From: Candidatus Xenobia bacterium
Lineage (GTDB): Bacteria > Vulcanimicrobiota > Xenobia > Xenobiales > QWHO01
Length of the DNA stretch: 64,000 nt
Direction: 5' to 3'
NCBI GenBank assembly: GCA_045863235.1
Contig: BTUM01000003.1
Span: forward strand, 152,861-216,860
The translations under genes were made by a program, and so were the position numbers. The stretch's first letter is position 1, and the number at the start of each line of letters is the position of its first letter. Below, in pieces: positions 10,400-63,615 of this stretch. Under the pieces are notes generated by a model, which had not been told where the DNA came from, searched no databases, and saw only the letters and a program-made list of their open reading frames with translations.

Positions 10400-10817
10400 G
10401 GATGCAGGCTGGTTTCCAGCAGCAAGTGGCTCTTGTCCGACCACCATACCTCCACCTGAATGGACTTGAGACGTCCCGCCATGACTTCCTGGCCGGTCAC
10501 CACCAGCGCGAATTTTCCGTTGTTCTGGGTAATCTCCGGATAGGGCGCGGGAGGGAACTGAAGCGGGGCGGCGCCGACGGCCGGCTGGCCCACCCGGCCG
10601 TCAAAGCTGTAACTCCCGGCCGGGATGTAAGCAAAGCCCCCGTTCGCGTTCAGTCGCACTCTTTCGAGCAACTGGCGGCCGACTCGGTGGCGGTTGTCAG
10701 GTCGTGCGACCGGGCCGCCAGCTGGATCCCCGAGATGAACACGCCCACCAGTGCCAGGATGACCACGGCCACCAGAGCGATCGCCAGGACCAGCTCGGTC
10801 AGGCTGAAACCACGCAC
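10396..10817 (-). pseudogene. Prepilin-type (PilV-like) protein, frameshifted near 10684
   Basis: RG|FSLTELVLAIALVAV..TTATE continues as VGRQLLE..IQVEVWW..LETSLHP in another frame. Confidence 0.72.
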
Positions 10818-10913
10818 TACACTCCCGTTCAGAATTGGAACGCGCGGGAGGGTAGACAATCTGTTGAACGGCGCCGCGCCAATTCCTCAAGCGTTCAAGG
10901 CGCGGCGCCTCAG
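10817..10913 (-). repeat. attC-like double-hairpin element, copy A
   Basis: GGCGCCGCGCC hairpin, GTTCAACAGATTGT, then CTACcCTCCCG/CGGGAGtGTAG hairpin; 10852-10913 is 58/62 identical (inverted) to 63540-63601. Confidence 0.85.
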
Positions 10914-11149
10914 CGCCCCAGCCAGGTGGCCACGCTCAACGTGGTGCCGGCGAAGTTGCTGGCCCCGTCGTCGAAGAAGTCCTCCACGAAGGTCACCCAG
11001 GTGCCATTGCCCAGGTACAGATCCCCTGGTTTCACGGTCACCCCGCTGACGGTGGTGCTGGGCAGGCTGGCATCGCCCTGGGCCAGCACCGCCCCCAGGA
11101 TGGTCACCTCGTTATCAGGGCAAGCTGAGCAGGGCGCCCTGAATCCCAC
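10910..11149 (-). pseudogene. Probable C-terminal remnant of a PilX-like gene
   Basis: VTILGAVLAQG..DLYL..LSVATW end resembles the end of 37640-39274; precedes the pilin pair. Confidence 0.4.
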
Positions 11150-11151
11150 GG

Positions 11152-11667
11152 TTACTCCAGAAAGAATTCCTCCACCCCGACCGACCAGCCGGGCAGAAGG
11201 TCAGGCAGTTCCAGGCACTGGTGCTCGCTCAGCAGCACCCGCGAGTCGGCCCTGGCCAGGGTGGCACAGCGATTGTCGGGGTCGAGCACCAGGACGACAG
11301 CCACCCCGGCCAGGAGATACTCCTGGACCTTTCTTTCGACCTCGCTGGCCCGGTCGTTCGGGGAGAGGACCTCCACCACCAGCGCCGGGGCCGTCACAAG
11401 GTAGCCCTCCGGGCTGGTGGCCGGCGGGCCCTGGTCAACGTGAACAAAGGCCACGTCGGCCCCCCGAACCGTTAGAGGCTCACGGGAAACGACCACGCCC
11501 ACCTCGCCAACATAGAGACGACCGAGCTGCTGTTTGCGAATGTGGTTGGCCAGCAAGAAGTAAGCGTTTCCCTCCACCTGGCCGTGGCGCCCCCCGGTCG
11601 GACTCAAAGCAACGATCTCCCCTTGCACGATCTCAAAGCGGTCAACCCCTGTGAGGCTCATCTGCAT
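11152..11667 (-). CDS. Uma2 family (PD-D/ExK) endonuclease
   Basis: EIVQGEIV..SP..RH, ADVAFV, APALVVEVLSPND, KVQEYL.AGV; start uncertain. Confidence 0.88.
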   Translation of the reverse strand: MQMSLTGVDRFEIVQGEIVALSPTGGRHGQVEGNAYFLLANHIRKQQLGRLYVGEVGVVVSREPLTVRGADVAFVHVDQGPPATSPEGYLVTAPALVVEVLSPNDRASEVERKVQEYLLAGVAVVLVLDPDNRCATLARADSRVLLSEHQCLELPDLLPGWSVGVEEFFLE

Positions 11668-11803
11668 GAATTCCCTGCCAGCAGGCCCCTCCCCTACGTT
11701 TGCATGCGAAGCACGTAAGTGCCCGGCGTGCGCCCGCTCAGCTCCTCGTTGTAGGTCGGGCCGGGGGGGAGTTGAAGGGGCAGCTTGAGGCAGAACGAAA
11801 AAC

Positions 11804-12397
11804 ATGCAGCCAATGCTCTGTTACGTACCTCTGTGGGAGGCCAAACTACCCGATCTGAGCGCACTGAGCGTATTCGAGCAGGTCACCGTAGAGGATGCCG
11901 TCCTGACGTTCTCTTTCCACGGGCTGGGATTCGCCGCCTCGCTGGTACAAGGGCATCTCGAGTTAGACGAACCCCTTTGTCACGAATCCTGGCCCGGCGC
12001 AGCTGACGCGCTCGTGTCGGCTCCCGCTTACCTGGTGGTGGCCGGGCTGGATCAAGCCGATCCGCTCAATCAGGCCACCGAGTTGACCCTGGTCACAAGC
12101 CTCCTTCTGAAAGCCACCAACGCCCCGGGCGTCTGTTGGAACGGAGGCCCGATGACCTCTTCGCGGTATTTCTTCGAGCAGGCCGCCAATGTCTTGAAAG
12201 AACCCCCTGTGAGCCTGTGGGTCGCCTTCCAGATCGCCCCTCGAGAGGGCGGCTCGGAGGGGTTCACCCGCGGGATGGTCTCGTTCGGACTTCCGGAGCT
12301 GGAGTCTCCCCTTTGTCCCGAGCCCCCGGGCGAGCTCTCGAGACGCCTGGCAGGTCTGGCCGAATACCTCCTGGTCAACGGTCCGGTCAGGCTGGCC
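11804..12397 (+). pseudogene. DUF4261-like protein, 3'-truncated and running in frame into the next gene's signal peptide
   Basis: PVSLWV, GFTRGMVSFGLPELE, LAEYLLVNGPV, then an abrupt switch to MRRFVWLL. Confidence 0.55.
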
Positions 12398-13541
12398 ATG
12401 AGAAGATTTGTATGGCTCCTGGTGCTGACCCTGATCGCCTGCTCTGGAGATGGCGGCACCGCCCCTACCGATCCTTCATCCCGCCCAGCGAGTCACGCTG
12501 AGCGGACCCGAGCAGGTCGACGGTCCGGCCACCTTCGAGGCGCGCGTGGTCCGGGACGGGCCCGTGAATTTCCAGGTGGACGGCCCGGGCCGGTTCGAGC
12601 CCGCCCAAAAGGTGTCCACGGCCGGAGTGGCCAGGGTGCGCTACATCCCGGACATTCCTGGGCACATCGTGACCGTCACGGCGGAGAGCGAAGAGGTGAT
12701 CTCCGAGCCCCTGACCGTGCGCGGCCTGACCCTTATCTTCGACGAGCCCGGGGGGCGGTTTCGCAACTTCCGCACCTGCCGCGACCCCTTTGACGGCGGC
12801 GACGCCCCGCGCACGGGGCTCGACGACCTGCGCATCTCGGGCAGCGCTCAGCCCAACGCGGACGCCTTCCAGACGATCCAGAACGCGTTGCCAGGCGAGT
12901 CGATCCTGGTGGTCGACCTGCGGCGCGAGTCGCACGGTTTCTCCGACCAGGCCGCCATCAGCTGGTTCACCGATCGCGACATGAGCAACGTGGACTTCAC
13001 CGACGAGGAGATCGAAGCGGATGAACAGGCCCGCGTGTTGGGCCTGCCTTCGCCCGTCACCATTTACACCATTGTAAAAAGGACCGAGGACGTCATCACT
13101 GAGTTCACCTCCGAGCAGGTGACGGTGACTTCACGCCGGCTCGAGCCCGAGGTGGTGGAGGCCCTGGGAATGAGCTCGGCCCGGCTCCACGTGCGCGACC
13201 ATTTCGAGCCGCGCGATGAAGAAGTGGACGAGTTCCTGGCCCTGGTGCGCTCGCTGCCCCCGGGCACCTGGCTCCACTTCCACTGCCACGGGGGAGACGG
13301 CCGCACGACCACTTTCATGAGCATGTACGACATGATGCGCAATGCACACCAGGTGAGTTTCGAGGACATCCTCACCCGGCAATTCTTGCTGGGCGGAATC
13401 GACCTGCAAACGCCGCCGCCCGAGGGCTCGTGGAAACGTCAGCCGGCCATCGAGCGGTTGGCCTTCCTGCGGGAGTTCTATCGCTACTGCCGGCAGCAGG
13501 GTCCCGATTTTAGCCGCACCTGGAGCGACTGGAAAGGCTAG
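12398..13541 (+). pseudogene. PTP-like phytase (inositol phosphate phosphatase) lipoprotein, frameshift near 12478
   Basis: Lipobox LIA|C in one frame; ISGSAQP, VDLRRESHGF, HFHCHGGDGRTT in frame 12450-13541. Confidence 0.78.
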
Positions 13542-13618
13542 TCCCCCAGAGCGTCTCGCTCAGCATCGACAACGTGCCGCTCGGGCGCTGTCGGGTGAGG
13601 GCGAGCCTGCTCGACCGA

Positions 13619-13727
13619 AGGTGCTTGAGATCGGACGAGGCTGGTCGACGACTCCTGCGGATCGAACCCGCCCAGGTTGTCAGCCGGTCTTGAGCCTGTA
13701 GCCCACCCCGGCCTCGGTCACCAGATG
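13619..13727. repeat. Right copy of duplicated DHH-end/kdpE-end junction
   Basis: Direct repeat of 8668-8748 with a ~28-bp insertion. Confidence 0.9.
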
Positions 13728-17567: not shown

Positions 17568-19561
17568 TGTCCCACTCCCAGGGCGACGAGCGCCATGTCA
17601 ACGAGCTTGATTCCCACGAAGGGAGCGATGAGGCCGCCCACGCCGTAAATGAGCAGATGGTCACGCAGCAACTGGGCCGCTCCCACGGCGCGATAGGGGA
17701 CTCCGCGCAGAGCCAGCGGGATCAGAGCCACGATGATCAGGGCGTTGAAGATCACCGCTGACAGGATGGCGGTCTCCGGGTTGGCCAGGTGCATGAAGTT
17801 GAGCCTGTCGAGCACCGGATAGGTAGTCGAGAACGCAGCCGGGATGATGGCGAAGTACTTGGCCACGTCATTGGCGATGCTGAACGTGGTCAGGGCTCCA
17901 CGGGTCATCAGCAGCTGCTTGCCGATCTCCACGATCTCGATCAACTTGGTGGGGTTGGAGTCGAGGTCGACCATGTTGGCCGCCTCGCGAGCCGGCTGGG
18001 TGCCTGTATTCATGGCCACGGCTACGTCTGCCTGAGCTAAAGCGGGAGCGTCATTGGTGCCGTCGCCGGTCATGGCCACCAGCCGCCCCCCGGCCTGGTA
18101 TTCACGAATCAAGGACAACTTGTTCTCGGGTGTCGCCTGGGCCAGGAAATCGTCCACCCCGGATTCGGCCGCGATGGCGGCGGCCGTGAGGGGATTGTCG
18201 CCGGTGATCATCACCGTCTTGATGCCCATGCGCCGGAGCTGAGAGAAGCGCTCCTTGATACCGCCCTTGACGATGTCCTTGAGGTGGATGGCTCCCACGA
18301 CCCGCCCGTTCTCAGCCACCAGCAAGGGCGTGCCACCCTGTCTGGCGATGGTCTCGGTGGCCTCCACCAGCTCGGGAGGACACGATCCCACCCAGTTGGT
18401 GACGGTATCCGGTGCCCCCTTGCGGATCTGCGTGCCGTTGAGGTTCACCCCGCTCATGCGAGTCTGAGCCGTGAAGGTCACAAACTCGGCGTGCTCGGGC
18501 AGCTCCGGTGCCCGCAAGCCGAACTTTTCCTTGGCCAGCACCACGATGCTGCGCCCTTCGGGCGTCTCGTCGGCCAGCGAGGAGATCTGCGCCAGCCGGG
18601 CCAGCTCCTTTTCGGGCATTCCGTTGACCGGGTAGAAAGCCACCGCCTGGCGATTGCCCAGGGTAATGGTGCCGGTCTTGTCCAGTAAGAGAACGTCCAC
18701 GTCACCCGCCGCCTCCACCGCTCTCCCCGACATGGCCAGCACGTTGCGACGGATCAGGCGGTCCATCCCGGCGATGCCGATGGCCGAGAGCAAGCCCCCG
18801 ATGGTGGTCGGAATCAGGCAGACCAGCAGGGCCACCAGCACCGTCAGGGTGACGGGCTGTCCCTGGCCGGCTGCCTCGACGCTATAGAGTGAGAAGGGGT
18901 AGAGCGTCACCACCACCAGCAAGAAAATGATGGTGAAGCCGGCCAGCAGGATGTTCAGGGCGATCTCGTTGGGGGTCTTCTGGCGCCTGGCCCCCTCCAC
19001 CATGGCGATCATCCGGTCGAGGAAGCCCTGGCCCGGGTCCTGCTCGATGCGGATGACCAGCCAGTCGCTGAGCACCCGTGTTCCCCCGGTGACGGCGCTG
19101 CGATCGCCGCCCGACTCGCGAATGACGGGCGCGGACTCACCCGTGATGGCGCTCTCGTCCACCGAAGCGATGCCGTCCACCACCTCACCATCGGCGGGGA
19201 TCGGCTCGCCAGCGGAAACCAGCACCAGATCGCCCCGGCGAAGGTCGGTGGAAACGACCTCCTCAAGGTCCTGGCGGTTCTCGAGGCTCCGCAGGCGCTT
19301 TGCACTGGTCTGCTGGCGGCTGCGGCGCAGGGCGTCGGCCTGGGCTTTCCCACGGCCTTCGGCCAGCGACTCGGCAAAGTTGGCGAAGAGCACCGTGAAC
19401 CAGAGCCAGAGCGCGATCTGCACGGTAAACCAGTCCAGGTCCCGCAAGGCCATCACCGTAACCAGCACGCTGCCCACTTCGACCACGAACATGACCGGGT
19501 TCCGGGCCATGGTGCGGGGGTCGAGCTTTCGGAAGGCATCTTTGAGGGCTCGCAGGTACAT
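17564..19561 (-). CDS. kdpB: K+-transporting ATPase subunit B
   Basis: [28 protein letters not shown]. Confidence 0.97.
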
Positions 19562-19562
19562 C

Positions 19563-21260
19563 TCAGAATACCACTCCCGTGGGCAGCATGAAGTGTTCGA
19601 CGACAGGCCCGAGAGCCAGGGCCGGCAAGAAGGCCAGGGCTCCCACCACCAGCACCACCGTCACCAGCCAGAAAACGAACAGGGGGCCATGGGTGGGCAG
19701 GGTGCCAGGGCCCGGGGGAACCTTCTTCTTAGCAACCAGCGAGCCAGCCAGAGCCAGCACCGGGAGCGCGAGCCAGTAGCGGCTGACCAGCATCGCCAGG
19801 CCACCCCCAACCGAGTAGATCGGCCCGGTCGCGGTCAGTCCCCCGAAAGCGCTCCCATTGTTGTTGCCCATGGAGGTGAAGGCGTAAAGAATCTCGCTGA
19901 AACCGTGGGGACCGGTGTTGGCCACCGCCCCCTTGGCGGCCGGATTAACCATGGCCCAGGCGCTCAATCCCAGCACCACCGCCGGCATGATCAAGATGAC
20001 CAGGGAGCACATCTTGATGTCGTAAGCCTCGATCTTCTTGCCCAGGTACTCGGGGGTACGACCCACCATCAAGCCAGCCGTAAAGACGGCCACCAGGGCA
20101 AAGACCAGCATGCCGTACAGCCCGCTGCCCACGCCCCCGTAGACCACCTCGCCCAGTTGCATCATCACCAGAAGACACAAGCCCCCCAGCGGCGTGAACG
20201 AGTCGTGCATGCTGTTGACCGACCCGTTGGAAGCAGCCGTGGTGCAAACCGCGTAGAGGGCCGAGAGCACCGTGCCAAAGCGCACTTCCTTGCCTTCCAT
20301 GTTGCCGGCCGAGATGTCCACGCCCATGGCCGCCAGACGCGGGTTGCCCTGCATCTCAGCCCCCACGCAGAAGGCCACCACGGCCGCAAAGATCAAGGTC
20401 ATGGCAGCCAGCAGGGCCCAACCCTGGAGGCGGTCGCCGGCCAGCTGCCCGAACGTATAGCAGAGGGCAGCCGGGATCAGCAGAATGGAAAGCATCAGGG
20501 CGAAGTTGCTCAGCGGGGTTGGATTCTCGAACGGGTGGGCCGAGTTGGCATTGAAGAAGCCCCCTCCGTTGGTGCCCAGTTGCTTGATGGCCACCTGGGA
20601 GGCGGCCGGCCCGCGGGCCACGACCTGCTCCGTCTGACCCTGGAGGGTTTTCACCGACTCGTAGTCGCCAAAATTCTGGGGTACGCCCTGAGAGATCAAA
20701 AAGAGCGCCCAGATCACTGACAGGGGCAGCAAGATGTAGAGGGTCGAGCGGGTCAGGTCGACCCAGAAATTCCCCAGCCCGTTCTCGTTGCAGCGGGAGA
20801 ACCCGCGTGCCAGGGCGGCCAGGATGGCGATGCCGGTAGCGGCCGAGACGAAGTTCTGGACGGTCAGGCCGAGCATCTGGGTCAGGTAGCTCATGGTGGT
20901 CTCACCGCCGTAGGCCTGCCAGTTGGTATTGCTGACAAAGGAGGCAGCGGTATTGAAGGCCACCATCGAGGGCACGCCCGCCATCTGCTCGGGGTTGGCA
21001 GGCAAGTAGTGCTGCAGTCGCTGCAGGGCATAGAGAGCCAGGATGCCGACGGCCTGAAAAGCCAGCATGGCCAGGGCGTAGACCCGCCAGCTCATCTCTT
21101 GGCGGGGGTCGATGCCAGCCAGACGATACAATCCTCGCTCCAATGGCCCGAGCAGGCGCTCGAGAAGCACCGGTTTGCCATCCAGCACGCGGGCCATGAA
21201 GGCCCCCAGCGGCTTGACCAGGGCGAGCAACACGACAAAATACAAGAGGACTTCCATCAT
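19563..21260 (-). CDS. kdpA: K+-transporting ATPase subunit A
   Basis: NTNWQAY, LGTNGGG, SNGSVN, NNGSAF filter motifs. Confidence 0.97.
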
Positions 21261-22492: not shown

Positions 22493-22870
22493 TCAGCCAA
22501 AGCTCAGGTCAGGTATCCCCTCGAAATCGCGGACGTTGCGGGTCAAGAGCGGGGCATGACACCAGGCCGCCGTGGTTCCAATCGCGATGTCCGCGGCCCG
22601 GCGACGTGGAGAGCCAAGACTCCGGAAGGTATTGGCGGCTCGGAGAGCGAGCTCCTCACTGAAAGGCAACACTCCCTGCGAACCAAAGAAGGTGCGGGCC
22701 AGGGCCAGTTGGTGGGGAGTGCGAGGGCCCCGACAGAACTCGTACCAGGCGACGGCCGAGAGTTGCAGGTCACTGCCCGCATCCAACAGGTCAAAAACCT
22801 GGTCGCGCTCAGGCCCCGCGACCTCCACCGCATAGATCAAGAAATCTGTGTCCAGGTGATAAGACCTCAA
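22493..22870 (-). CDS. vapC: PIN-domain VapC toxin
   Basis: LDTDFLI, WYEF, ADIAIG, LLTRNVRDF..IPDL. Confidence 0.9.
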   Translation of the reverse strand: MRSYHLDTDFLIYAVEVAGPERDQVFDLLDAGSDLQLSAVAWYEFCRGPRTPHQLALARTFFGSQGVLPFSEELALRAANTFRSLGSPRRRAADIAIGTTAAWCHAPLLTRNVRDFEGIPDLSFG

Positions 22871-23121
22871 AAGCCTTCATCCTCCTCCTTGAGGCGGCGA
22901 ACTTCCTCGGCCGGGTCGTGGCCTTTGAAGGCCTCGATCAATTCCTCAAACCTGCGGCGGCGCTCGCGGCGAAGATGCGTCGGAGTCTCTGTGAGCTGGT
23001 CGCGATAGCCGACAATGGCCCGTCGGATCGCCTCCGAGGTGGATACATTCAGGCGAGTGGAAAGCTCGCGAGCCGCTCGGAGAGACTCTTCATCGAGCAT
23101 GACAGTCGTACGCTGATACAT
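22867..23121 (-). CDS. Ribbon-helix-helix (CopG-like) antitoxin
   Basis: RTTVMLDEE..STSEAIRRAI; overlaps the toxin start. Confidence 0.82.
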   Translation of the reverse strand: MYQRTTVMLDEESLRAARELSTRLNVSTSEAIRRAIVGYRDQLTETPTHLRRERRRRFEELIEAFKGHDPAEEVRRLKEEDEGF

Positions 23122-23244: not shown

Positions 23245-24765
23245 TTACTGGAAGGCCAGGCCCGCCAGACCGCTCTGCTGCACGGACGGTGCCAGCACCG
23301 GGCAGCGCCCGATGTTCTGCACGTTGGTGATGTCGACTCCGGGCGGAACGCCCGGAGGGGGATTCTGGGCCAGACGCTGGAGCACGGTCTGCATCTGCTG
23401 CTGGTTCGTGATGCCCGACTGGCCCAGGATACTTTGCTGGGTGGGAGCCTGGGTGCCAAAGTTGACCTGGTCGAGCGTCTGGATGAACGCCCGGCCCAGA
23501 GCCGAACCGTCGCGGGTGCCGTTGTCGGCCCCATCGGCGGCCAGCAGAGCCTGCAGGTCGCCGCGGTTGAGACCGGCGTCCAGCGAGTTCTGGCTGTTCA
23601 GGGTCCACTGGACCACCGAGCCGTCGTTCAGGCCATTGTCGAGCGTGTCGTGGCCCCAGAGACGCAGGACCGAGTTACTCATGCTACCCAGGCCGTTGTT
23701 CCCGGTAATCCGGTTCTCCATGTTGACCGGGCCCTGAGCATAGGTGATCGGACGATTGCCGTAGCGCTGGTTGAGGTCGACGCCCGTCTCGGCCTTGTAG
23801 ACTTCGAAGAAGGCTGCGTCGAGACCCTTGCCAGTCAGGCCGCCGTAAGTCTGCATCTCGTACTGGTAGATCCGCTTGGCCAGCTCGACCTCAGCCGGCT
23901 TGAAGCCGCTGGGGTTCTGCAGCACGTTGAGGATCACGCCACCGTCGTTCTTGCCGGCCGAGGTAACCTGAATACCGTAAAGGTGCACGGCCGCACGCTG
24001 GGCATCGCTCAGGCCGCTGACCTGCTGGCGCTGCTGAGAGTTGAGGTCCTGATAGCGGAAGTTCGGTCCGGGGGCCTGGCCCACTCCGCCACCGCCACCA
24101 ACGCCACCGCCGCCGTAGCCGCCACCAGCGCCACCAGCGCCACCAGCGCCGCCAGCGCCACCAGCACCGCCGGCACCACCGACACCGCCGCCGCCGTAGG
24201 CGCCACCGCCGCCACCGACGCCGCCACCGCCGTAACCACCGCCACCGTTGCCGCCGACGGGTCCAGGCCGCATACTGCCGGCCGTCAAGCCGCCGCCGCC
24301 ACCGTAAGCTCCACCGGCCCGACCGGCGCCGCCAGCGTTGCCAGCGTTGCCCGCATTCCCGGCGTTGCCCGCATTCCCGGCGTTGCCGGCGTTCCCGGCG
24401 TTGCCCGCGTTCCCGGCGTTGCCCGCGTTCCCGGCGTTGCCCGCGTTCCCGGCGTTGCCCGCGTTCCCGGCATTGCCGGCGTTACCCGCGCCACCGATGC
24501 CACCCTGGCCGCCTTGACCGGCAAAGCCACGGTAGCCCGAGTTTAACTGCTGCAAAGCAGCCAGCAGCATTTGAATCATCTGCTGGAACTGCATCAACAT
24601 GGCTGGATTCTGCTGCATCGAAGCCAGCGGATTTTGAGAGAGAGGGTTGTTGAACAGGCCGGTTGGACCTGCAGACGGGAAAAATTGATTGCCGTAGGGC
24701 GAAATGCCGCCCGGTGAACCGTACTGGGGAAAACCTCCCCCGGGAATGAAACCACCGTAGGCCAT
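23245..24765 (-). CDS. Gly/Gln-rich repeat protein, harpin-like composition
   Basis: GGAGGAG RBS; (GNA)17, poly-G/A linker, C-terminal globular region; a single Cys. Confidence 0.75.
   Translation of the reverse strand: MAYGGFIPGGGFPQYGSPGGISPYGNQFFPSAGPTGLFNNPLSQNPLASMQQNPAMLMQFQQMIQMLLAALQQLNSGYRGFAGQGGQGGIGGAGNAGNAGNAGNAGNAGNAGNAGNAGNAGNAGNAGNAGNAGNAGNAGNAGNAGGAGRAGGAYGGGGGLTAGSMRPGPVGGNGGGGYGGGGVGGGGGAYGGGGVGGAGGAGGAGGAGGAGGAGGGYGGGGVGGGGGVGQAPGPNFRYQDLNSQQRQQVSGLSDAQRAAVHLYGIQVTSAGKNDGGVILNVLQNPSGFKPAEVELAKRIYQYEMQTYGGLTGKGLDAAFFEVYKAETGVDLNQRYGNRPITYAQGPVNMENRITGNNGLGSMSNSVLRLWGHDTLDNGLNDGSVVQWTLNSQNSLDAGLNRGDLQALLAADGADNGTRDGSALGRAFIQTLDQVNFGTQAPTQQSILGQSGITNQQQMQTVLQRLAQNPPPGVPPGVDITNVQNIGRCPVLAPSVQQSGLAGLAFQ
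24334..24486. repeat. 9-bp tandem repeat x17 (18-bp higher-order unit) encoding Gly-Asn-Ala
   Basis: cccggcgttgcccgcgtt reiterated. Confidence 0.95.
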
Positions 24766-37512: not shown

Positions 37513-37639
37513 AGGATTTGAAAAACCTTCCTCGTGGAGAGAGACATCGACCGGGCCGAAAAGGTTCCCGGGCTAAGAGGAATTTCTCTTCTCAGGGCTC
37601 GGAGCCTGCCGAACGCGGAACTTATGCTATGATCGAGGA

Positions 37640-39274
37640 ATGAGACGGCGAGGAATCGGACTGGGAATCACCCTGGTCGTGGTGGCCCTGGTGTTCACGC
37701 TGGGGATGGTGGTGGCCAGCGCCAGCGTCAGCCACCTCAGCCTCATGACCCGAACGGCCAACGCTGCCCGGGCCGACGATCTGGCCCGCTCGGCCCTGGC
37801 CCTGGCGGTAGAAAAGCTGTTCAACGACCAGCGTTTTGGAACCCGGTCGGGGGAGGACGAGACCGTGACCGTGAGTCTGCCTTTCGCTCCCGAAGGCAGC
37901 CAGGGGATGGTCAGCTTCGAGCCCGGCAAGGGTGTGCCGGTCTCGCTGAACAACCTGCTCGGAAGCGAGTCGACGGTGGGCTCGGGGGGGCAGGTCGTGC
38001 CGCTGCAGTCAGCCCACCTGGTGGCCGTGGGCAATTGCCGGGGGGTGACCAGAACCGTGGAGGCAGTGCTGCATCTGCCTCCCTTTCCTTACGCGGTCGC
38101 CTCGGCCGGGCCGGTCCACAGCGGTGGAGGGCTCGAGGTGGGAGCGGTGGGAGCCGGGCTCAGCTCCGCCAGCGGGATCTCCGAGCTCAAGCCGGCTCAC
38201 CTGTTGACCAACGCCACCGGCTCCTCGGCCCTCACCCTCGGCCCCCGCACCACCATCAAGGGGGACTTGCTCTCGAGCGGAGGCATCCGGCTCGATCCCT
38301 CGGGCGGAACAAAAGTCGAGGGGCAGGTCCTCCCCGATCAGGAGCCGCGAACCATTCCCCGGCTTCGCCTGGAGGATTACGATCCCGAAGCCCTCGACAA
38401 GCCCTACGTGGAGCTCGCTTCCGGCTTTGATCAGGACACCGAGCTGACCGGCTCGATGAAGCGGGAAGGCGACTTTCGGGTAGACGGCGACCTCAAGCTT
38501 CGCGGAGCCCTGATCTATGTCGAGGGCGACGTGGAGGTGACCGGCGCGCTGACCGGCTCGGGCCTGCTGGTGACCACCGGCAAGCTGAAGGTGGGAGGCC
38601 AGACCCGAATGGTCAGCTCCGACCGCATGGCGATCCTCTCCCGAGGCGGAATCGAGCTCGAGGGCAAAGGCAAAGCCAGCTCGAACCTGCGCGGCGTGGT
38701 CTACACCGAGGGGGGCCTGAAGGCCCGCGAGATCCGCCTGGAGGGGACCCTGCTGGCCCAGACCCAGGGCCAGGTGCAGCTGGATGAAACGCGCTTGATT
38801 CAGGATCCGAACGCTTCCCACGTGGAGATCACCCTGACCCAGCCGGATAGCTTCAACCTCTTCCTCGACGAGTCGGGGATCCACAATTCCCCACCTCCCG
38901 GCTCGTTTGTCCAGCTCAACATCAGCATGACGAGCAAGGGCCCGCACGTTGCGACCAGCTTCAGCGGGGCAGGCATCGTACTATTAGGTCCCGGTGCCGG
39001 CAGCTACGCTGACCCCGCGACCGGGCTGCCGACATTTCCCCAGAGTTTTCCCTTTGACGCCAAAGCGGGTGACCTGGTGAGCCATTACATGGCCCTGTGC
39101 GGGTTCAAGATCAGCCCTGACTCTCGGCTGATTGCCAAAGCCATCCAGGACGGGCTGGACAAGCTCCAGCCGGCGCCGGGAACCACTTCCGAGCCCGAGG
39201 TGATCACCGTCGACCCCAGCGCCATCCTGCCCGTCTCCGAGCGGGCCCGGGTGATCCTGTGGAAGCCTCAGTAG
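37640..39274 (+). CDS. PilX/GspK-like minor pilin with beta-rich C-terminal region
   Basis: MRRRG|IGLGITLVVVALV; ARADDLARSALALA. Confidence 0.7.
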   Translation: MRRRGIGLGITLVVVALVFTLGMVVASASVSHLSLMTRTANAARADDLARSALALAVEKLFNDQRFGTRSGEDETVTVSLPFAPEGSQGMVSFEPGKGVPVSLNNLLGSESTVGSGGQVVPLQSAHLVAVGNCRGVTRTVEAVLHLPPFPYAVASAGPVHSGGGLEVGAVGAGLSSASGISELKPAHLLTNATGSSALTLGPRTTIKGDLLSSGGIRLDPSGGTKVEGQVLPDQEPRTIPRLRLEDYDPEALDKPYVELASGFDQDTELTGSMKREGDFRVDGDLKLRGALIYVEGDVEVTGALTGSGLLVTTGKLKVGGQTRMVSSDRMAILSRGGIELEGKGKASSNLRGVVYTEGGLKAREIRLEGTLLAQTQGQVQLDETRLIQDPNASHVEITLTQPDSFNLFLDESGIHNSPPPGSFVQLNISMTSKGPHVATSFSGAGIVLLGPGAGSYADPATGLPTFPQSFPFDAKAGDLVSHYMALCGFKISPDSRLIAKAIQDGLDKLQPAPGTTSEPEVITVDPSAILPVSERARVILWKPQ

Positions 39275-40002
39275 TCCTGGTTGCGCAGGTAGACAGTCCG
39301 ATCAAGACCAAAGCGCTCGGGCCGCTTGCCATCGGGTGAAGGGGCCTGCAGGGCAAGGTGGATGGCGATGGCCGTGGGTCGCAATGTCAACTCGAGCTCG
39401 CTGACCTGAGGCGCCACCACCCTCGCGCCTCCCCCTCCCAGCAGGGCAGCCGGATCGGCCGGCAGGCTCACCCGACTCCGGGAGACCGGCCCATGGGCCC
39501 GGTGGCGCAAGACCTGATCGCGCGGGCTCCACCAGTAGAGGTCCACCTGGTCGGAGTAAATCTGGCTTCCATCCCCGCCCACATCCACCAGCCGGTGCAG
39601 AGCCAGAATCACCGGGTCGCCAGGCAGGTAGGCGATGCCTCCCGGGGCGGCCATCTCCAGGTCGCGGGCCAGGCGCTGCACAGTCAGGCTTGCCAGTTGC
39701 TGCAGCTCGACCTGCTGGGCTCCTCGCACACTGCCTTTGCCCATGGGCACGAGGATCTGCACCACCAGCGCCAGGAGCAAGAGCAACAAGCTGGCGGCCA
39801 TCATGATCTCCAGCAGGCTAAAGCCTCGTCTCCCGCGCGGCGTCTTAGAAGTCCGGCCGCAAACCCCCATGTGGTGTCGGAGGGAACCTCCGCCATCACA
39901 AGATGTTGTAGGCGCCCGGACTTCTAGCACAATGTGTTGGGCGTCGCGCAGCCGGAAAACCGTGCAAAGGTGGTTTCCGGCTGCGCTCCTAGCGCTGGAC
40001 AT
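39268..40002 (-). CDS. Prepilin-type (PilW/PulJ-like) protein with a 60-aa leader containing an inserted element
   Basis: GRRG|FSLLEIMM; ends VYLRNQDY. Confidence 0.75.
   Translation of the reverse strand: MSSARSAAGNHLCTVFRLRDAQHIVLEVRAPTTSCDGGGSLRHHMGVCGRTSKTPRGRRGFSLLEIMMAASLLLLLLALVVQILVPMGKGSVRGAQQVELQQLASLTVQRLARDLEMAAPGGIAYLPGDPVILALHRLVDVGGDGSQIYSDQVDLYWWSPRDQVLRHRAHGPVSRSRVSLPADPAALLGGGGARVVAPQVSELELTLRPTAIAIHLALQAPSPDGKRPERFGLDRTVYLRNQDY
39845..39986 (-). repeat. attC-like double-hairpin element, copy B
   Basis: GCGCAGCCGGAAA/TTTCCGGCTGCGC hairpin, GCCCAACACATTGT, TAGAAGTCCGG/CCGGACTTCTA hairpin. Confidence 0.75.
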
Positions 40003-40381
40003 CCGTCCTCCACTGCTCGCGAACGACCTCGCGGGCCATTCCCCTGTCCCGCCAGCTCACCCGAACGCGCAGGGCCCGCATGCGGTCGGGATCGATGCCC
40101 GGCTCGGTAACGGCCAGCACCTGCAAGCTGGGCTCGAAGACCGTGCCGCGCCCCTGGACCGTCGGCAGGGGCGCCGCCGGGCCCACCGCCAGCTGGTGAA
40201 AGGGCTTCTCCATCGCCTGCGAGAGAATGCTCTCGGCCAGGGCCTCGGCCTGCATGCGCTGGCCCGACACCCGCACCGAGGCCACCGCGGAGGGGTAGAG
40301 CTGGAAGACCACCAGCACCACCAACAGCAGCACAAAGGTGCTCAAGACGATCTCCGACAGGCTCAGGCCGCGCATTCTCAT
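39989..40381 (-). CDS. Prepilin-type (PilV-like) protein
   Basis: MRMRG|LSLSEIVL; LRVRVSW. Confidence 0.8.
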   Translation of the reverse strand: MRMRGLSLSEIVLSTFVLLLVVLVVFQLYPSAVASVRVSGQRMQAEALAESILSQAMEKPFHQLAVGPAAPLPTVQGRGTVFEPSLQVLAVTEPGIDPDRMRALRVRVSWRDRGMAREVVREQWRTDVQR

Positions 40382-41901
40382 AGGGTCTGGATCAATCTTA
40401 CCAGAGGAAGCATGGTTGCCAGGCAGATCAGCCCGGCAGCCAGTCCCATCCCCATCATCATCAGCGGCTCGAGGGCCGCGCAGGCCATCTCCAACTCGGA
40501 TTCGAGCTCCAGCTCATAGAGGCGAGCCACCCACCCGAGCGTGGCGGGCAACTTGCCCGATTCTTCCCCGGCCGTCAGGAGCGACAGGAAGGGCTGCGGA
40601 AAAAAACCGCTCTGGCGCAGGCTTTCCGTCAGGCTCACCCCTTCCTCGAGAGATTGTCTCACTTCGGGCAAAGACCGCTCGAGAACCGGGTTGGAGGCGA
40701 TCACCCCGGCCGCCGGAACCGCATCCAGCACCGACAGGCCCACCTGCAGTTGCAGGGCCAGTGCCCGGGCGAAGCGAGCGGTGGCAAAGAGCCTCATGGC
40801 GGGGCCGATTCGAGGCATGGACAGGATCCTCCTGAAGAGCCAGAGACGTCCCGCCGGGCTGCGATAAATCTGTCGAAAGGACCACCAGGCCAGGGTCAGG
40901 CCGGCCGCCAGGGCCAGCAGGCCTGGCAGGCTGCCCAGAAAACCTGCCACCGTCACCAGCAGGAGAGTGATGGCGGGGGGCTCCTCTCCCGCGCCGCGCA
41001 AGAGCTCGAGCTGACCCTTGAGGAGAAAGGGTGGCACCAGGATGAGCATGGCGACGCACACCAGGAACAGGCAGACGGGATAGGTCAGGCTGGAGCGAAC
41101 GCGCATCACCACCTCGCGGGTGCGCTCTTCGTAGCCGGCCAGCTGGCGCAGCACCTCCACCAGCCCGCCGGTCTCCTCGGCCACCCGCACCAGCTGCACC
41201 TGCAGCTGGCTGAACGGTCCGGCTCGCCGCATGGCCTCGTAGAGCGGAAACCCGCGAGCCACGTCGGCCTCGAGGGCGCGACAGACCTCCTGCAGCTGCC
41301 GGGTCTCGCCCTGCCCGGCCAGCAGGTGGAGACCCCGGCTCAGGTTCACCCCGGCCGCCAGCAAAGTGGCCAGCGAACGCAAGATCAAGGTGCGCGAGCG
41401 CAGGTCCAATCGCAGCGCCGGTCGGGAGCGGGCCGCACGGGGGTCGACCCGCCCGGTCCTCGGAACCGAAACCGTTCCGCCCAGCCGGCGCTCAAGATCG
41501 CGGGCCAGGTTGGTCATGCGCACCAGGTCGGTGCCCGAGAACGGGCGCAGATCGATGCGCCGATCGGCATACAGCACACCACGTACCCGCCCCTGTCCAT
41601 ACACGGGCACGCAGAGCACCGAGCGGATTTCCGAGAGCATGAGGCTGGAAATGTCCTCCAGACCTGGCTCTTGCTGGGCGTTGGCGCTCAAGAGCGGCTC
41701 TCCGGACTCGTAGACCCTGCGAAACAAAGACAGGCTGACGGGGGCGCTGGTGAAAACCTGGGCCGGGTCCAGCCCGTGGGCCTCCCAGACGGCCAGCTCC
41801 TGCTCTCCCCTCTGGTACAGCAAGAGAGCGCGCTCGGGGCGAATCTGGTTGACCAGCTCTTGCATTCCGGCCTTGAAAACCGGGCCCGGGTCGCTGTTCA
41901 A
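40378..41901 (-). CDS. GAF domain-PilC/GspF fusion protein
   Basis: IRSVLCVPV..GVLYAD GAF, then LATLLAAGV..AEETGGL and AGEESGKL GspF repeats; start TTG41901 or ATG41865. Confidence 0.8.
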   Translation of the reverse strand: MNSDPGPVFKAGMQELVNQIRPERALLLYQRGEQELAVWEAHGLDPAQVFTSAPVSLSLFRRVYESGEPLLSANAQQEPGLEDISSLMLSEIRSVLCVPVYGQGRVRGVLYADRRIDLRPFSGTDLVRMTNLARDLERRLGGTVSVPRTGRVDPRAARSRPALRLDLRSRTLILRSLATLLAAGVNLSRGLHLLAGQGETRQLQEVCRALEADVARGFPLYEAMRRAGPFSQLQVQLVRVAEETGGLVEVLRQLAGYEERTREVVMRVRSSLTYPVCLFLVCVAMLILVPPFLLKGQLELLRGAGEEPPAITLLLVTVAGFLGSLPGLLALAAGLTLAWWSFRQIYRSPAGRLWLFRRILSMPRIGPAMRLFATARFARALALQLQVGLSVLDAVPAAGVIASNPVLERSLPEVRQSLEEGVSLTESLRQSGFFPQPFLSLLTAGEESGKLPATLGWVARLYELELESELEMACAALEPLMMMGMGLAAGLICLATMLPLVRLIQTL

Positions 41902-43184
41902 GCCTTCCAGGCCTCCAGCTCCCGGGTCAGGCAGCGGTTCGCCTCGGCGAGATCGGGATAGCGTTGCTCGGGCTCCTTGGCCAGCATCCTGAGCAGCACG
42001 GCGTCCAGTCCTGGAGGAATTCCCGGCCGAATCGAGGAGGGCGCGGGCGGCTCCTCGCTCACGTGCAGGAAGACGAGCTGCAGCGGCTCGTCGGCCTCGA
42101 ACGGCTTGCGGCCGCACAAGACCTCGAAGGCCACCACGCCCAGAGCATACTGGTCGGTAGCCGGCTCGTAGTGTACCCCCTTCACCTGCTCGGGTGCCAT
42201 GTAGGCCGGCGTTCCCAGGGCCGTGCCGGTGTGGGTCAGGCTCTCCGAATCCAGTGCCCGCCCAAGTCCAAAGTCGGTGACCTTCACCTTGCCCGTCGGG
42301 GTCACCAGAATGTTCTCGGGCTTGAGATCGCGGTGCACCACCCCGTGTTGGTGGGCGTAGTGGACCGCCTGAAGCAGGGGGGTGAGGTAGCCCCGGGCTT
42401 CCTCGGGGCCCAGTCCCTCGGGCCGCATGCGCTGGCGCAAGGACCCGCCTTCCACCAGTTCGAGCACCAGGTAAACCAGCCCCCCTTCCTCTCCCCAGTC
42501 GTACATGCGCACGATGTGGGGGTGGGAAAGCTGTCGATACAGCTCCACCTCGCGCAGGAAGCGGGAGCGAAAGTCAAGGCTGTTGCTGGCGTTCTCGTGC
42601 AACACTTTGAGAGCCACCGGGTCGGCCTCGGGCCGGTCGGGATCGATCCCACGGTAGACGGTGGCCATGCCGCCGCCGCCCAACCGCTCCCCCACCGCGT
42701 AGCGGCCCAGCTTGCCCTGCAGATGATCCGAGTCCACCGTGGCGGGCAGGGCCAATCTCTGGCGCAACTTCTCGGCCCAACGCTCGCGAGCGCGCATCCG
42801 CAAGAGCATGGCGATGACGACGCCAACCAGCACGGTCAGCCCGGCCAGCCAGGCACGATAGCGCTGCCAGACTGCCGTCGGAGAATCGGGACGGAGAAAC
42901 AGCGTGCCCTCGGGCGGGTAACGCTGATGGGTGAAGAAATAGGCCTGGCTCACGGTCAGGCGCTCTTCGCGATAGCCGGAAGCCTGAAAGCAGAGCTCCA
43001 CGTCACCCTGGCCGTAAGCCTGGCGGCTGCGCAGCCTTACCGCCTTTCCGGCCACCCCGAGCTCGCCAAACTGGTCTCGCACGACCGCCTGGGGGGGGTC
43101 CACGACGAAGGTGACCGTGGGCCCGGTGTCCTCGGCTCCCACCGTGGCCGACAAAATCAGAAGCGTCAGCAGGAGCCGTCTCAC
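41898..43184 (-). CDS. Membrane Ser/Thr protein kinase with N-terminal extracytoplasmic domain
   Basis: Signal peptide, TM helix, LGGGGMATVY, HRDLKPEN, DFG, APE. Confidence 0.92.
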   Translation of the reverse strand: MRRLLLTLLILSATVGAEDTGPTVTFVVDPPQAVVRDQFGELGVAGKAVRLRSRQAYGQGDVELCFQASGYREERLTVSQAYFFTHQRYPPEGTLFLRPDSPTAVWQRYRAWLAGLTVLVGVVIAMLLRMRARERWAEKLRQRLALPATVDSDHLQGKLGRYAVGERLGGGGMATVYRGIDPDRPEADPVALKVLHENASNSLDFRSRFLREVELYRQLSHPHIVRMYDWGEEGGLVYLVLELVEGGSLRQRMRPEGLGPEEARGYLTPLLQAVHYAHQHGVVHRDLKPENILVTPTGKVKVTDFGLGRALDSESLTHTGTALGTPAYMAPEQVKGVHYEPATDQYALGVVAFEVLCGRKPFEADEPLQLVFLHVSEEPPAPSSIRPGIPPGLDAVLLRMLAKEPEQRYPDLAEANRCLTRELEAWKA

Positions 43185-58225: not shown

Positions 58226-58253
58226 TTGACATAGACAACTACTTAGTCATAAT
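58226..58253 (+). promoter_or_regulatory. Sigma70 promoter, probably giving a leaderless TA mRNA
   Basis: TTGACA-N16-CATAAT, 6 nt before ATG58260. Confidence 0.7.
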
Positions 58254-58259
58254 GAAACC

Positions 58260-58490
58260 ATGACCACCGTGAACGTGCACGAAGCCAAGGCCCGCCTTTC
58301 CGAACTCCTCAACCTCTTGGAGATGGGTGAGACCGTCGTGATCTGCCGACGAAACAAGCCAATCGCAGAGTTGCGTCTCTATCGCGACCGGGGCAAATCA
58401 CGCCCCATCGGGCTTTGCCCCGAACTTCCCCCATTGACCGAGGCTTTCTTCGAGCCCCTGCCTGACGAGTGGTTGGAAGCATTTCATTGA
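58260..58490 (+). CDS. Phd/YefM family antitoxin
   Basis: VNVHEAKARLSELL..GETVVICRRNKPIAEL. Confidence 0.92.
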   Translation: MTTVNVHEAKARLSELLNLLEMGETVVICRRNKPIAELRLYRDRGKSRPIGLCPELPPLTEAFFEPLPDEWLEAFH

Positions 58491-58873: not shown

Positions 58874-59189
58874 CACCGTGGATCGGGTTTCTCCCAGTAA
58901 ACCGTGGGAGCGCGACCGCTGCAGCGCCCCATCCGGCTACCTGGCCAGGGCGCGACAGAAGACCTCGCGTTGAGCCGGAGTGGTCCCCGTCCCAGCAAGG
59001 CCTCGACAGCAGCCTCGGGCCGCTCGACGGGCTGGGCGGAGGAGCCGGGAATTCCTCGGGTGGATCTCCATTCCATGCTCGTTCGAGGATGCGAGCCAAA
59101 CCTCTCAGTATAGTCGGGTTCTGTCGTGGCGAGGCAGAGCCGCAACAGACGCGAACAGACAAAGTACGTGAGCTGGCGATCAGCTTGAC

Positions 59190-59456
59190 TCGGACCCCGC
59201 AAGGTGCGCGGGCGGTGAGCGCGAAAGACCTGGCTCTATGACTTCTCCTGTGGCCGTGCAGGCTGACCCGGCTCGTCCCCGGGCCCACGACCTGGGCATC
59301 GTGGTGGACACGTTGCCCCCCCGGTCTGCACAACGCGATCACGGTGCGCGTGGGCCACATTACGCTGCGTCACGGCGAAGGGACCCTGTGAGCGGCCAGG
59401 GGTGCTGCTGCGCCGCAGTTTCGGGTCCATCGTCACGCTCGCATGTCTGACTCTGA
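59190..59456 (+). pseudogene. Collapsed duplicate of the ycxB-end/dmpA segment
   Basis: Ordered fragments matching ~56978-57200, ~57750-57785 and 58125-58145. Confidence 0.85.
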
Positions 59457-60753: not shown

Positions 60754-61298
60754 TCAAGGTGCGCCCGGCCTCCTGCTCGGAGGACTACTCCTGGCTGATC
60801 GCGCTGGCGGTGGACTCGGTGCTCTTCGGGGTACCCTCCAGCCGGCCGGCCTCCCAGGTGCAGGAGAGGGCCCGGCACAGCCTGGCCAATCTGGAAGCGA
60901 CCTGCTCGGACGGCTCGGTGGTGGCCCTGATCGCCTGGGAGGGCGAGCGCCGGGTGGGCTACCTGATCTTGCAGCTCGAGGAACGGGATCGCTTCACGGG
61001 GACCGCTCAGAGCTTCATCTACGACCTGGCCGTGGAGCGCGACCGGTGGGGAGCCCACGTGGTGCATCGCCTGGTGGAGCAGGCCGCGCGCGAGACGGCC
61101 CGGCGCGGCCATCGATTCATGGTGGGCGAGGTCACCTTCGACAACGAGCGCACCCTGGTACAGGCCCGCCGTCTCGGCTTCGTGGTCGAGCGCGTTCGGC
61201 TGGGCATCGGTTGTGGACCGGAGGGAAGGATCCCCCTGCAGCGCCAATCCGACACCGCCTATACCGCCAGCCGCCAAAAGAAAACCCGGCCCATCTGA
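60750..61298 (+). CDS. GNAT family acetyltransferase
   Basis: FIYDLAV..W..V..LV..A, N.RT...RRLGF. Confidence 0.75.
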
Positions 61299-61307
61299 GA
61301 GCCGGGT
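61276..61307 (-). terminator. Intrinsic terminator of tRNA-Pro
   Basis: ACCCGGC/GCCGGGT stem plus TTTTCTTTT on the minus strand. Confidence 0.75.
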
Positions 61308-61312
61308 GGAGA

Positions 61313-61389
61313 TGGTCGGGGCGAGAGGATTTGAACCTCCGGCCTCATCGTCCCGAACGATGCGCGCTGCCAGGCTGCGCTACGCCCCG
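61313..61389 (-). tRNA. tRNA-Pro(CGG)
   Basis: CGGGGCG acceptor; CATCG-ttCGGga-CGATG; encoded CCA. Confidence 0.95.
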
Positions 61390-61401
61390 ATAACGAGGAT
61401 G

Positions 61402-61429
61402 ATTATAGCATAACCCTCGTTTGTGTCAA
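61402..61429 (-). promoter_or_regulatory. Consensus sigma70 promoter of tRNA-Pro
   Basis: TTGACA-N16-TATAAT with extended -10 TG. Confidence 0.88.
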
Positions 61430-61535
61430 AGGGAAAAATCCATGGTTCTGGCCAGCTGATTCCCCGCGATGGAGGATTCAGCGATTCCTCAGCCAGCCCC
61501 GAAAGGAGTGTAAAACCCGGCAAAGCGCGAGCACA

Positions 61536-63341
61536 TTAGATCCCATCGAAAACGACTTTTCCTCCCTCGATCATCCAGGTCTCGGTGATGGTCGCCCCGA
61601 GTCCCTTCTGACCTGCGGTCGTGGCAGGGATGGTGCTGGTGGACTTCCCGGTCGGCTCGATGGTAACGCGTTTGCCCTGGGTGGTCATGGGGAAGTTGGC
61701 CGTGCCCTCAAACTTAAGGCCCGTGAACACCTCCTGATTTCCAAGCAAGGCTGAGAAATCGGCGAGCGCGGTCACCTGGAGCTGGTTTTGGGCTAGCGTG
61801 GCCCGACCGCTGGGCGTGCCCTGCTTCCTCAGGGTTTCCGTGCCCGAGATCTTGCTGCTGAGGATCTCGGTGCGAGTGCCGGAGAAGTCCGTATTGACCG
61901 CCTTGAACTTCTTAACCTCGAATCCCCCCGCAGGCTTGCGTGCGAGGGTTAGCTCGCACTCGTAGGTCAACTCAAGGTGACCCTGAATGCGGTCCTCTCC
62001 AAACTGGTGCTTGCCAAACAAGATGTCTTCATCCCGCACGATCTTGAGCCGGAACTTCTTTCCGCAGGCGGGGTCGAAGGTCGGGTTCTTCCGGATGAAG
62101 TCCTTGAGCAGGTCCTTCAAGGCAAGATTTGGATTGGCCTGGGCTTCCTTGGCCAGGGCGTTGGCGACCATCGGGGTTCCGAAGGAGGTGCCGCTGGCGA
62201 TGTTGGGGCAATCTGCCGGGGTTCCCGCCGGCCTGGGAATAGGCACGTCGCGACCCGGAGCGCGTATGAAGTTCGGATCGTTGGGGCGCGAAAAGTTCTG
62301 TCCGTTGTCCTCCCGACACTCGCCGGGCCTACCGCTGCTCCCGACCACGACGATGTGCTCCATGGCCTCGGGATACTTCTTGCGCAGCTCGTCCAGGGCG
62401 CGGGTCAGGTCGACCCCGACCTCGCCCCTGTCGGCGACCCCGTTGCCGGCGGACACCACCAGCAGCACGTTGTCCAGCGCGCCCTTCTCGCTGAAGGACT
62501 GCAGGAGGCTGGCATAGGTGGTGAGAGTTGCGACCTGGTTGGCGAGTTGTCCCTGAGGCGTGTCCGTCGCGAGGCCTCCGATCGAGCTCGAGATCACGAT
62601 AGGACCCTGGCTCTCAAAGCGAGCCGCGTTGGCGACGGAGTTGGCCAACAGCGCGTTGCCCGCGGCGACACTGACGTCGCTGAAAGTAAGAAAGAGATTT
62701 CCGAGAACATCCCAGGCCGATGGCAAGCCGTTCGAGGTCACGCCGATTCTCTCGGTCTGGCCGGAAAACTTGTCAAAGGCGATCCGGGAGGTCATGTCTC
62801 CGTGGGTGCACGGCTGGCCGGCCTTGGAGAAAATGTCCACCGTGGCCATCCGAACCGGTCCTGTCCCGGCCGCCTGGACGTCCTCCGGGTTGACGGGTCC
62901 GCAGTATTCTTCGATTCTTGCCTGGATAGCCCCGACCGGAGGGGCGGAGACGGCGACGAGGGGAGTAACGCTCAGCACTTCGGGAGCGTTTGCAGTGGCT
63001 GCGATGAAGGCTCCCTCCTGTCGAGGCGGGACCTGAATGAGAAAGATCCCCGTATCCGGGACGAAGTCTGCCAGAGTGCCCCCGTTGGCCTCGGCCAGGG
63101 TCGCAATGGCAGCATCGCTCACCCCCGCGTGGGCCTGCAGATAGACGTAGCCGGCAAAGGCGGAGACAGTCACGTCCTCGCCCAGCAGGTTCCGGTAGGA
63201 GACCGGGCCCAACTCGAGGAGTTGAGCGGGCGGCGGCTGTATGGGATTGAGCGGTGTCGCCGGCGGGGTAAACGAGCCACCACCGCAAGCTGTAGCCAGG
63301 AGAGCGACTGTCAGGATGAGGAGGTAGGCGGAGTATCGCAT
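61536..63341 (-). CDS. S8 subtilase lipoprotein with unknown C-terminal domain
   Basis: Lipobox ATA|C; TVD, HG, SAGNG, SGTSFGTPMVA. Confidence 0.82.
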   Translation of the reverse strand: MRYSAYLLILTVALLATACGGGSFTPPATPLNPIQPPPAQLLELGPVSYRNLLGEDVTVSAFAGYVYLQAHAGVSDAAIATLAEANGGTLADFVPDTGIFLIQVPPRQEGAFIAATANAPEVLSVTPLVAVSAPPVGAIQARIEEYCGPVNPEDVQAAGTGPVRMATVDIFSKAGQPCTHGDMTSRIAFDKFSGQTERIGVTSNGLPSAWDVLGNLFLTFSDVSVAAGNALLANSVANAARFESQGPIVISSSIGGLATDTPQGQLANQVATLTTYASLLQSFSEKGALDNVLLVVSAGNGVADRGEVGVDLTRALDELRKKYPEAMEHIVVVGSSGRPGECREDNGQNFSRPNDPNFIRAPGRDVPIPRPAGTPADCPNIASGTSFGTPMVANALAKEAQANPNLALKDLLKDFIRKNPTFDPACGKKFRLKIVRDEDILFGKHQFGEDRIQGHLELTYECELTLARKPAGGFEVKKFKAVNTDFSGTRTEILSSKISGTETLRKQGTPSGRATLAQNQLQVTALADFSALLGNQEVFTGLKFEGTANFPMTTQGKRVTIEPTGKSTSTIPATTAGQKGLGATITETWMIEGGKVVFDGI

Positions 63342-63515
63342 ACGGGGCCTACGTTCTCGGATGATTCTTCAATGACCTCTTAGGACCCCTGAGCACATAT
63401 GCGTCCTGCTTCAGAGGCAACCTACAATACGTCCCTGTTGAGAGTCGCCTCGAATCTTGGCCTCGTTTGTGAGCAGGTTCCTCCAAACGGGTGGACTACG
63501 CCACCACTGAGATAT

Positions 63516-63615
63516 GTTGGGTGCAGTGCGAGTCGCCCACTAAGGCGCCGCGCGTTGAACACTTCAGGAATTGGCGCGGCGCCGTTCAACAGATTGTCTA
63601 CACAATCTGTTGGGC
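63516..63615 (+). repeat. attC-like element, copy C
   Basis: GTTGGGT..hairpin..GTTCAAC-AGATTGT-ctac-ACAATCT-GTTGGGC. Confidence 0.85.

Follow-up and report, generated by a model that had tools for sequence, protein, structure and literature searches.

The stretch analyzed here (the window) comprises 64,000 nt of contig BTUM01000003.1 from the genome of a Candidatus Xenobia bacterium (GCA_045863235.1) and contains three short, hairpin-forming elements, A, B and C, each co-oriented with and upstream of a prepilin-like gene (Table 1). A first-pass annotation had regarded them as attC-like recombination sites for shuffling minor-pilin cassettes or as a non-autonomous element with a preference for pilin leaders. 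The genome-wide comparison described below makes it highly probable that all three are non-autonomous derivatives of DDE transposons, i.e., MITEs (miniature transposable elements with inverted repeats), which insert at Y-TA-R sequences and whose copies in prepilin leaders survive by in-frame tolerance.

Table 1. Elements A, B and C and their neighboring genes, with positions in the 64,000-nt window.
Feature	Position	Strand	Remarks
Family A copy (probable MITE)	10818..10912	-	95 nt; 12-nt internal deletion relative to the 107-nt TA-to-TA consensus
Family B copy (probable MITE)	39846..39991	-	146 nt TA to TA; net 144 nt = 48 codons; IS1182-type left end
C, left part	63541..63600	+	Left half of family A as far as the internal TA
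C, right part	63601..63626	-	Inverted stub of the family D left half
Prepilin gene downstream of A	10396..10817	-	G/F cleavage at 10808
3' remnant of large gene	10910..11115	-	~68 codons; homology stops near 11115, beside a Uma2 gene
Prepilin gene containing B	39268..40002	-	ATG at 40002; G/F at 39822; Pfam N_methyl at residues 56-80
Upstream prepilin-type gene	39989..40375	-	Stop codon carries the target TA of B
Multi-copy unit with PilX-like start	63835..64000	+	RRG/V motif, G/V at 63941/2

The boundaries first given for A and B were corrected, from TA to TA, to those listed in Table 1, while the reported orientation and proximity to prepilin motifs hold for all three elements. The first TA of element A is mutated to TG and is now part of the TGA with which the upstream gene remnant terminates; its final TA directly adjoins the GTG of the downstream prepilin gene, placing the end of the element just before the motif GTG-R-G/F. 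The surrounding region (window positions 9758-11115) is a decaying pilin operon, in which the upstream gene, at least 357 aa long in a congener, is truncated and the first prepilin gene is frameshifted by a 1-nt deletion near 10680 and lacks the ATG of its orthologs. In element B, the first TA lies within the TAG stop codon of the preceding prepilin gene and the remainder is read in frame inside the leader of the next one, which extends to 60 aa; the element ends 24 nt before the RRG/F motif. Its borders could be fixed because loose ends of other copies begin at 39846 and at 39990-39994 in public contigs, in which the depth over B is several-fold to ~20-fold above that of the flanks.

Element C (63541-63626 overall) consists of two MITE halves fused at their internal TA. 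Its location near a prepilin-like start is merely incidental, and the G/V of the PilX-like motif follows 326 nt downstream. The A-derived part of C accounts for the previously reported identity to A, which is 94% (58/62) over 62 nt (arms 10852-10913 and 63540-63601), and its junction is also present in the congener G001, within a region of 98% identity. A long open reading frame (ORF) running from 63399 to 63998 through C into the PilX-like start was considered and rejected, being broken by a 1-nt insertion in G001. No promoter was found within C. The layout proposed for all three elements, namely a hairpin, the sequence CAACASATTGT, a CTA and a second stem, was recovered in part: the hairpins of A and B are different, these two elements belong to different families with only the core in common, and C has no second stem of its own. 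The regions of A, B and C fold better than shuffled sequences (z -2.3 to -8.2 over six strands). At gathering score, Rfam models matched only three tRNAs in the window and none of the elements. The core was also inspected for an IHF-type site: TCAA-N4-TTR is present in A, which departs from the full consensus, B and F fit worse, and the genome contains two HU/IHF genes.

The source genome (G000; 8.36 Mb, 66% GC, 166 contigs, 97.6% complete, so that some repeats may be unassembled) was scanned as a whole. Families were defined by genome self-comparison, copies were counted as non-overlapping matches in a profile search (E ≤ 1e-3), and genes were called with a home-made gene caller. The core, which resembles CAACAGATTGT and ends in an internal CTA, occurs at dozens of sites, and five related families (A, B, D, F, and G) account for 352 matches at 315 loci (A 83, B 99, D 50, F 85, G 35), 35 of these loci being composite. 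All five are non-coding, dispersed, multi-copy sequences of 105-147 nt with imperfect terminal inverted repeats of ~20 nt, and they share a common plan: a ~20-nt terminal repeat with an internal inverted copy, the core, and a second hairpin closed by the right terminal repeat. Only 5 of the 352 copies lie inside called genes, and convergent gene pairs host 110 of 299 loci as compared to 1148 of 6676 among all gene pairs. Called stop codons coincide with 39/181 left ends and 52/178 right ends (91/359 ends). Neighboring loci are spaced by a median of 10.4 kb, with less than 2 kb in 23 of 200 gaps, 13 of those 23 joining co-oriented loci.

Beyond the source genome, family B is present in all four congeners and, within a sister family, in 3 of 16 genomes, and the genomes that hold its left end are mostly labeled Eremiobacterota/Vulcanimicrobiota. 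Relatives of B keep the two-hairpin layout down to ~70% identity, with two-sided changes in 8 of 42 hairpin pairs and a covariation term of +0.37 (three lineages only). Template switching, which perfects quasi-palindromes, is a neutral candidate for the upkeep of such hairpins. Other genomes carry MITEs of their own whose ends are of the B, D or A type (L077 and similar loci; L131/L135; L219; L202), among them a 147-nt relative of B that has undergone a recent burst of near-identical copies and a version of 167 nt in a genome labeled Actinomycetota.

The target of insertion is evident from the flanks. Of 56 full-length copies with TA at both ends, one of which may belong to the element itself, 54 have the context Y-TA-R, which in 37 of them is CTAG. 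The site of A is empty in the congeners G001 and G002, where the stop codon abuts the prepilin ATG directly. At the site of B, G002 has no B and the same ATG, with a different in-frame leader of ~25 aa at the same TA. In addition, 31 elements from related genomes were compared with G000, and both flanks could be matched for 10 of them. Clean empty sites in G000 correspond to L098 (2 nt between the flanks) and L220 (one TA); the remaining eight comprise one compatible case (L121), two shared insertions, one case with A where the relative has B, and four that are different or uninformative. These observations show that the elements insert at TA and leave TA on both sides, and together with the abundance of copies they bear out the earlier suggestion of a non-autonomous element.

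The first-pass annotation had also expected rearrangements at these sites if pilin cassettes were being shuffled. Orthologous pilin operons keep their gene order without the element, and no junction variants were seen. In public contigs over positions 37600-42000 (4 of 20 listed runs), no joint skips B or links it to another pilin gene; no piece spans this interval and rare variants are dropped, and these contigs are thus no evidence for or against rearrangement.

A candidate partner for family B was found outside the source genome. Scanning for the left-end pattern of B returned 57 loci in genomes and 15 in metagenomes, most of which are MITE copies. Two of them, L152 (2082 bp) and L147, are complete elements with a B-type end on both sides and a 600-aa ORF that contains DUF772 and DDE_Tnp_1_6 domains and scores 275.9 and 274.9 bits, respectively, against a cut-off of 270 for the NCBIfam IS1182 model (NF033551). 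A third, putative IS1182-type element of 1934 bp (L160 in genome G015) encodes a protein 42-45% identical to that of L152. The first 29 nt of B are matched at 27 positions by L160, at 26 by L147 and at 22 by L152, and all three elements are flanked C-TA...TA-G. Nine contig ends with the IS1182-type left end occur in genome G041, and homologs of the IS1182 transposase were detected in 5 of 44 genomes of the class. Because complete IS1182-family transposons elsewhere have a terminal repeat that agrees with the left end of B, this element can be classified, as judged from sequence, as an IS1182-type MITE. Each family would be mobilized in trans; for B, the mobilizing enzyme is likely to be an IS1182-family transposase, since related genomes hold complete IS1182-type elements whose ends are almost the same and which lie in the same C-TA-G context.

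The family of A can be assigned by analogy only, through the shared plan and target. A simple MITE with the right end of A occurs in genome G005 (L202), and DDE transposases in G035 and G007 have flanking ends that agree with those of D in 15-16 of 20 nt, which is suggestive only. An IS630 partner, the first guess from the TA flanks, was rejected: neither the one IS630 in G000 nor eight loci in relatives offered a convincing end match. The terminal repeats of that single IS630 element (contig C10, ~18770-20230) bear no relation to the five MITE families. No DDE_Tnp_1 or ISNCY transposases were found in G000. Left-half/right-half pairs around a gene are limited to four loose pairs in G000, and none of the genes that they enclose turned up in the transposase searches that were run. 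An ORF on contig C166 (898-1932) looks by eye like an IS110-type transposase and is present as a single copy in the assembly.

Paired hairpins, an intergenic and convergent-gene location and modular clusters (35 of 315 loci composite) are also compatible with REP/REPIN-like repeats kept by a RAYT (Y1 HUH) transposase, or with derivatives of IS200/IS605. This origin is, however, very unlikely, given that the 97.6% complete genome has no match to Y1_Tnp (PF01797), that TA is found on both sides of the elements and one TA at empty sites, and that the ends of B are those of a DDE element of the IS1182 family.

It is extremely unlikely that the elements are attC-like single-strand recombination sites at which an integron-type integrase shuffles minor-pilin cassettes. 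The motifs behind this proposal are real: C contains both RYYYAAC (GTTCAAC, 63584-90) and GTTRRRY (GTTGGGC, 63609-15), all three window copies lie upstream of prepilin motifs, and the genome yields 17 tyrosine-recombinase matches. However, the best of 20 matches to the integron-integrase model (TIGR02249) reaches only 72.4 bits at a cut-off of 265. The cores of attC sites lie 57-141 bp apart, whereas those of C span 32 bp in total and form a stem of 11 perfect pairs with a 4-nt loop on both strands, with neither extrahelical bases nor an unpaired spacer and with the first three bases of the core pair unpaired in the fold. Paired R boxes, extrahelical bases, an unpaired central spacer and the terminal structure are given as requirements of attC sites (PMC5027507). 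Genome-wide, an RYYYAAC..GTTRRRY pair at 55-150 bp occurs at only 3 of 315 loci and is lacking in A and B, the loci are not arrayed, and orthologous operons have the same gene order without the element. C owes its attC-like pair to the joining of an A left half, at its internal TA, to an inverted D stub with the same core, the two core copies pairing as an 11-bp stem that mimics attC cores.

Prepilin-type genes are numerous in this genome, with ~190 copies in small operons (155 sites mostly with E5, 39 PilX-like), and a prepilin peptidase gene is present, with one match to the prepilin peptidase N-terminal family. An association with prepilins does not extend to the families as a whole: a mapped cleavage site (155 sites mapped) follows within 400 nt at only 6 of 315 loci, and the abundant copies are mostly unrelated to pilin genes. 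These six loci, five of family B and one of family A, are all co-oriented and all within 24 nt of the cleavage site; upstream of two PilX-like genes, at distances of 189 and 260 nt, there are elements on the opposite strand. At each of the five B loci, the stop codon of the upstream gene holds the left end, the element is co-oriented and the prepilin frame is open through B. Full-length B has a net length of 144 nt in eight of the commonest copies and is open in exactly the leader phase, and a 143-nt variant is nearly as common.

A model of tolerated insertion would account for this distribution as follows. At 66% GC, free TA sites are scarce, and many of them are part of TAA or TAG stop codons. 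As the elements start with TA followed by a purine, the stop codon is retained, and copies pile up where genes end and where convergent genes meet. Within pilin operons, the stop codon of one gene is often located in the leader of the next. Prepilin peptidase removes everything before G/F. Because the leader is removed and B preserves the frame, a B copy (144 nt net and open in frame) could survive in a cleaved leader, while it would be purged at ordinary tightly coupled genes. Copy A survives by virtue of its decayed operon and needs no argument from leader tolerance, because its upstream gene is cut to ~68 codons and its prepilin gene is frameshifted.

The alternative that B is actively favored in prepilin leaders, whether through its choice of targets or because a structured insert of 144 nt that sets overlapping pilin genes apart is of use in tuning their translation or mRNA stability, appears quite unlikely. 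It draws on an excess over a null of 21 leader sites among 4160 free tolerated YTAR sites: B is found at leaders at 5 of 94 loci (p=0.0002; p=0.002 without the copy in the window). For all families, the excess is 3.8-fold (p=0.01), falling to 2.6-fold (p=0.09) without the two discovery loci. Leaders also look recurrently hit, as the G002 ortholog of the B locus has a different insert at the same TA and one further in-frame leader case in a related genome (L103) corresponds to a different 41-nt insert at the same TA in the G000 ortholog. These numbers are, however, very small, and family B was singled out post hoc. The excess is inflated by promoters and miscalled genes among the tolerated sites of the null set, and ~190 paralogous prepilin-type genes imply relaxed selection. 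In other genomes, a prepilin motif lies downstream of only 2 of 41 B copies (2/25, 0/12, and 0/4) and 1 of 19 A copies, and L103 alone is in the open frame of B. The leader excess is best read as tolerance rather than targeting; of the proposed preference for pilin leaders, a weak excess stands, confined to family B and accounted for by in-frame tolerance.

A broader version of this idea, in which B exploits cleavable prepilin leaders as a recurrent niche, is likewise unlikely, if a little less so. In this scenario, the element would be frame-preserving by selection and favored at stop/leader overlaps, its conserved two-hairpin core would alter translational coupling or mRNA processing, gain and erosion of MITEs would tune the minor pilins made, and the shared core would be a functional module.

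Several observations weigh against a simple MITE model with in-frame tolerance. The IS1182 transposase was not found in G000, nor over the cut-off in its four congeners, so the partner of B was lost from G000 or is unassembled. No transposase-flanking end matching A was detected in 301 genomes of the phylum, 55 further sequences, viral contigs and 29 DDE_Tnp_1 loci. Clean empty sites are few, 2-3 among the 10 of 31 tested elements with both flanks matched. The model does not explain why both ends have internal inverted copies or why five families have a core in common. With regard to leaders, B alone shows an 8.9-fold excess without the discovery case (p=0.002, the family having been chosen afterwards). 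In addition, prepilin leaders are occupied at 4 of 11 stop-codon sites, as compared to 5/173 at other tight junctions, 50/420 at loose junctions and 75/515 at convergent ones, a count that caught only four of the six leader cases. The difference from other tolerated stop sites (4/11 vs. 135/1131, p=0.035) speaks against pure tolerance, because pure tolerance predicts at most the background rate, and this slight excess stays unaccounted for.

Several further features of the window deserve mention. The multi-copy unit downstream of C begins with a small PilX-like ORF, after which comes a second ORF that is prepilin-like, and its upstream flanks differ between copies. Besides the window (63835-64000), it occurs in G000 at the end of contig C93, at the start of contig C100, at C78:36970-37049 and at C24:26220-26308, as well as at L062 and L063; it ends three contigs of G000, one of G001 and one of G003. 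It resembles the left end of a mobile element that is present in multiple copies, is unassembled and carries pilin-like genes. No A-type left half was found in ~400 nt of flank of the copies that end contigs C100 and C93. The region 61316-64000, which follows a tRNA gene and encodes an S8 peptidase, is 98% identical to G001 over 2.5 kb; a prepilin ortholog elsewhere shows 88% protein identity to G001. This region is probably a recently exchanged island. Small gene pairs at 8844-9454, 22493-23121 and 58260-58490 have the look of Phd/PIN toxin-antitoxin systems by translation, and the gene for a glycine-rich protein at 23245-24618 contains a long tandem repeat of 9-nt units; repeats of a similar kind break other contigs. 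A CRISPR-like 36-nt repeat has 45 exact copies genome-wide.

The families described here are new MITE families, with B tied to IS1182, and do not constitute a pilin-shuffling system. A false lead for such a system is thereby removed, and an abundant repeat of an uncultured lineage is assigned to IS1182-type transposition. A cleaved signal peptide can be a safe harbor for a frame-preserving MITE, and a MITE in the leader explains odd, highly variable prepilin leaders and can mislead the annotation of start codons. No printed account of a MITE in a prepilin leader or of a CTAG-targeting IS1182 was found in the literature searched, which lacked most subscription journals.

Among known bacterial repeats, Correia, RUP and ERIC elements likewise exist as dozens of structured copies, some of which provide stop codons or in-frame additions, and show TA duplication; they have been linked to IS630-type or other partners. 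Similarly, QMITE1/2 of Coxiella form dozens of structured copies per genome, some supplying stop codons or in-frame additions (PMC5896051). With attC sites, the elements share short palindromic DNA and, in C, the motifs RYYYAAC and GTTRRRY by sequence, but C is far too short and lacks extrahelical bases and a central spacer, and there are neither cassette arrays nor IntI (PMC5027507). Some IS1182 members are stated to target palindromes (PMC5678879, citing Siguier et al.), and IS1182-derived MITEs are listed for Methanosarcina acetivorans, where ISMac2 has MITEs of 160 and 169 bp (PMC3852290 Table 4). According to the same source, MITEs share little but their ends with the partner, which can be missing from the genome (PMC3852290). 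The elements of the present study resemble the ISMac2 MITEs as described there in being ~150-bp, non-coding and multi-copy and in sharing only the terminal repeats with an IS1182 partner (PMC3852290). They differ in that TA flanks both ends in a CTAG context, whereas the direct repeats listed for the ISMac2 MITEs are 4 or 0 (PMC3852290), and in that an internal inverted copy of each end gives rise to two hairpins and a single core is common to five families whose ends differ.

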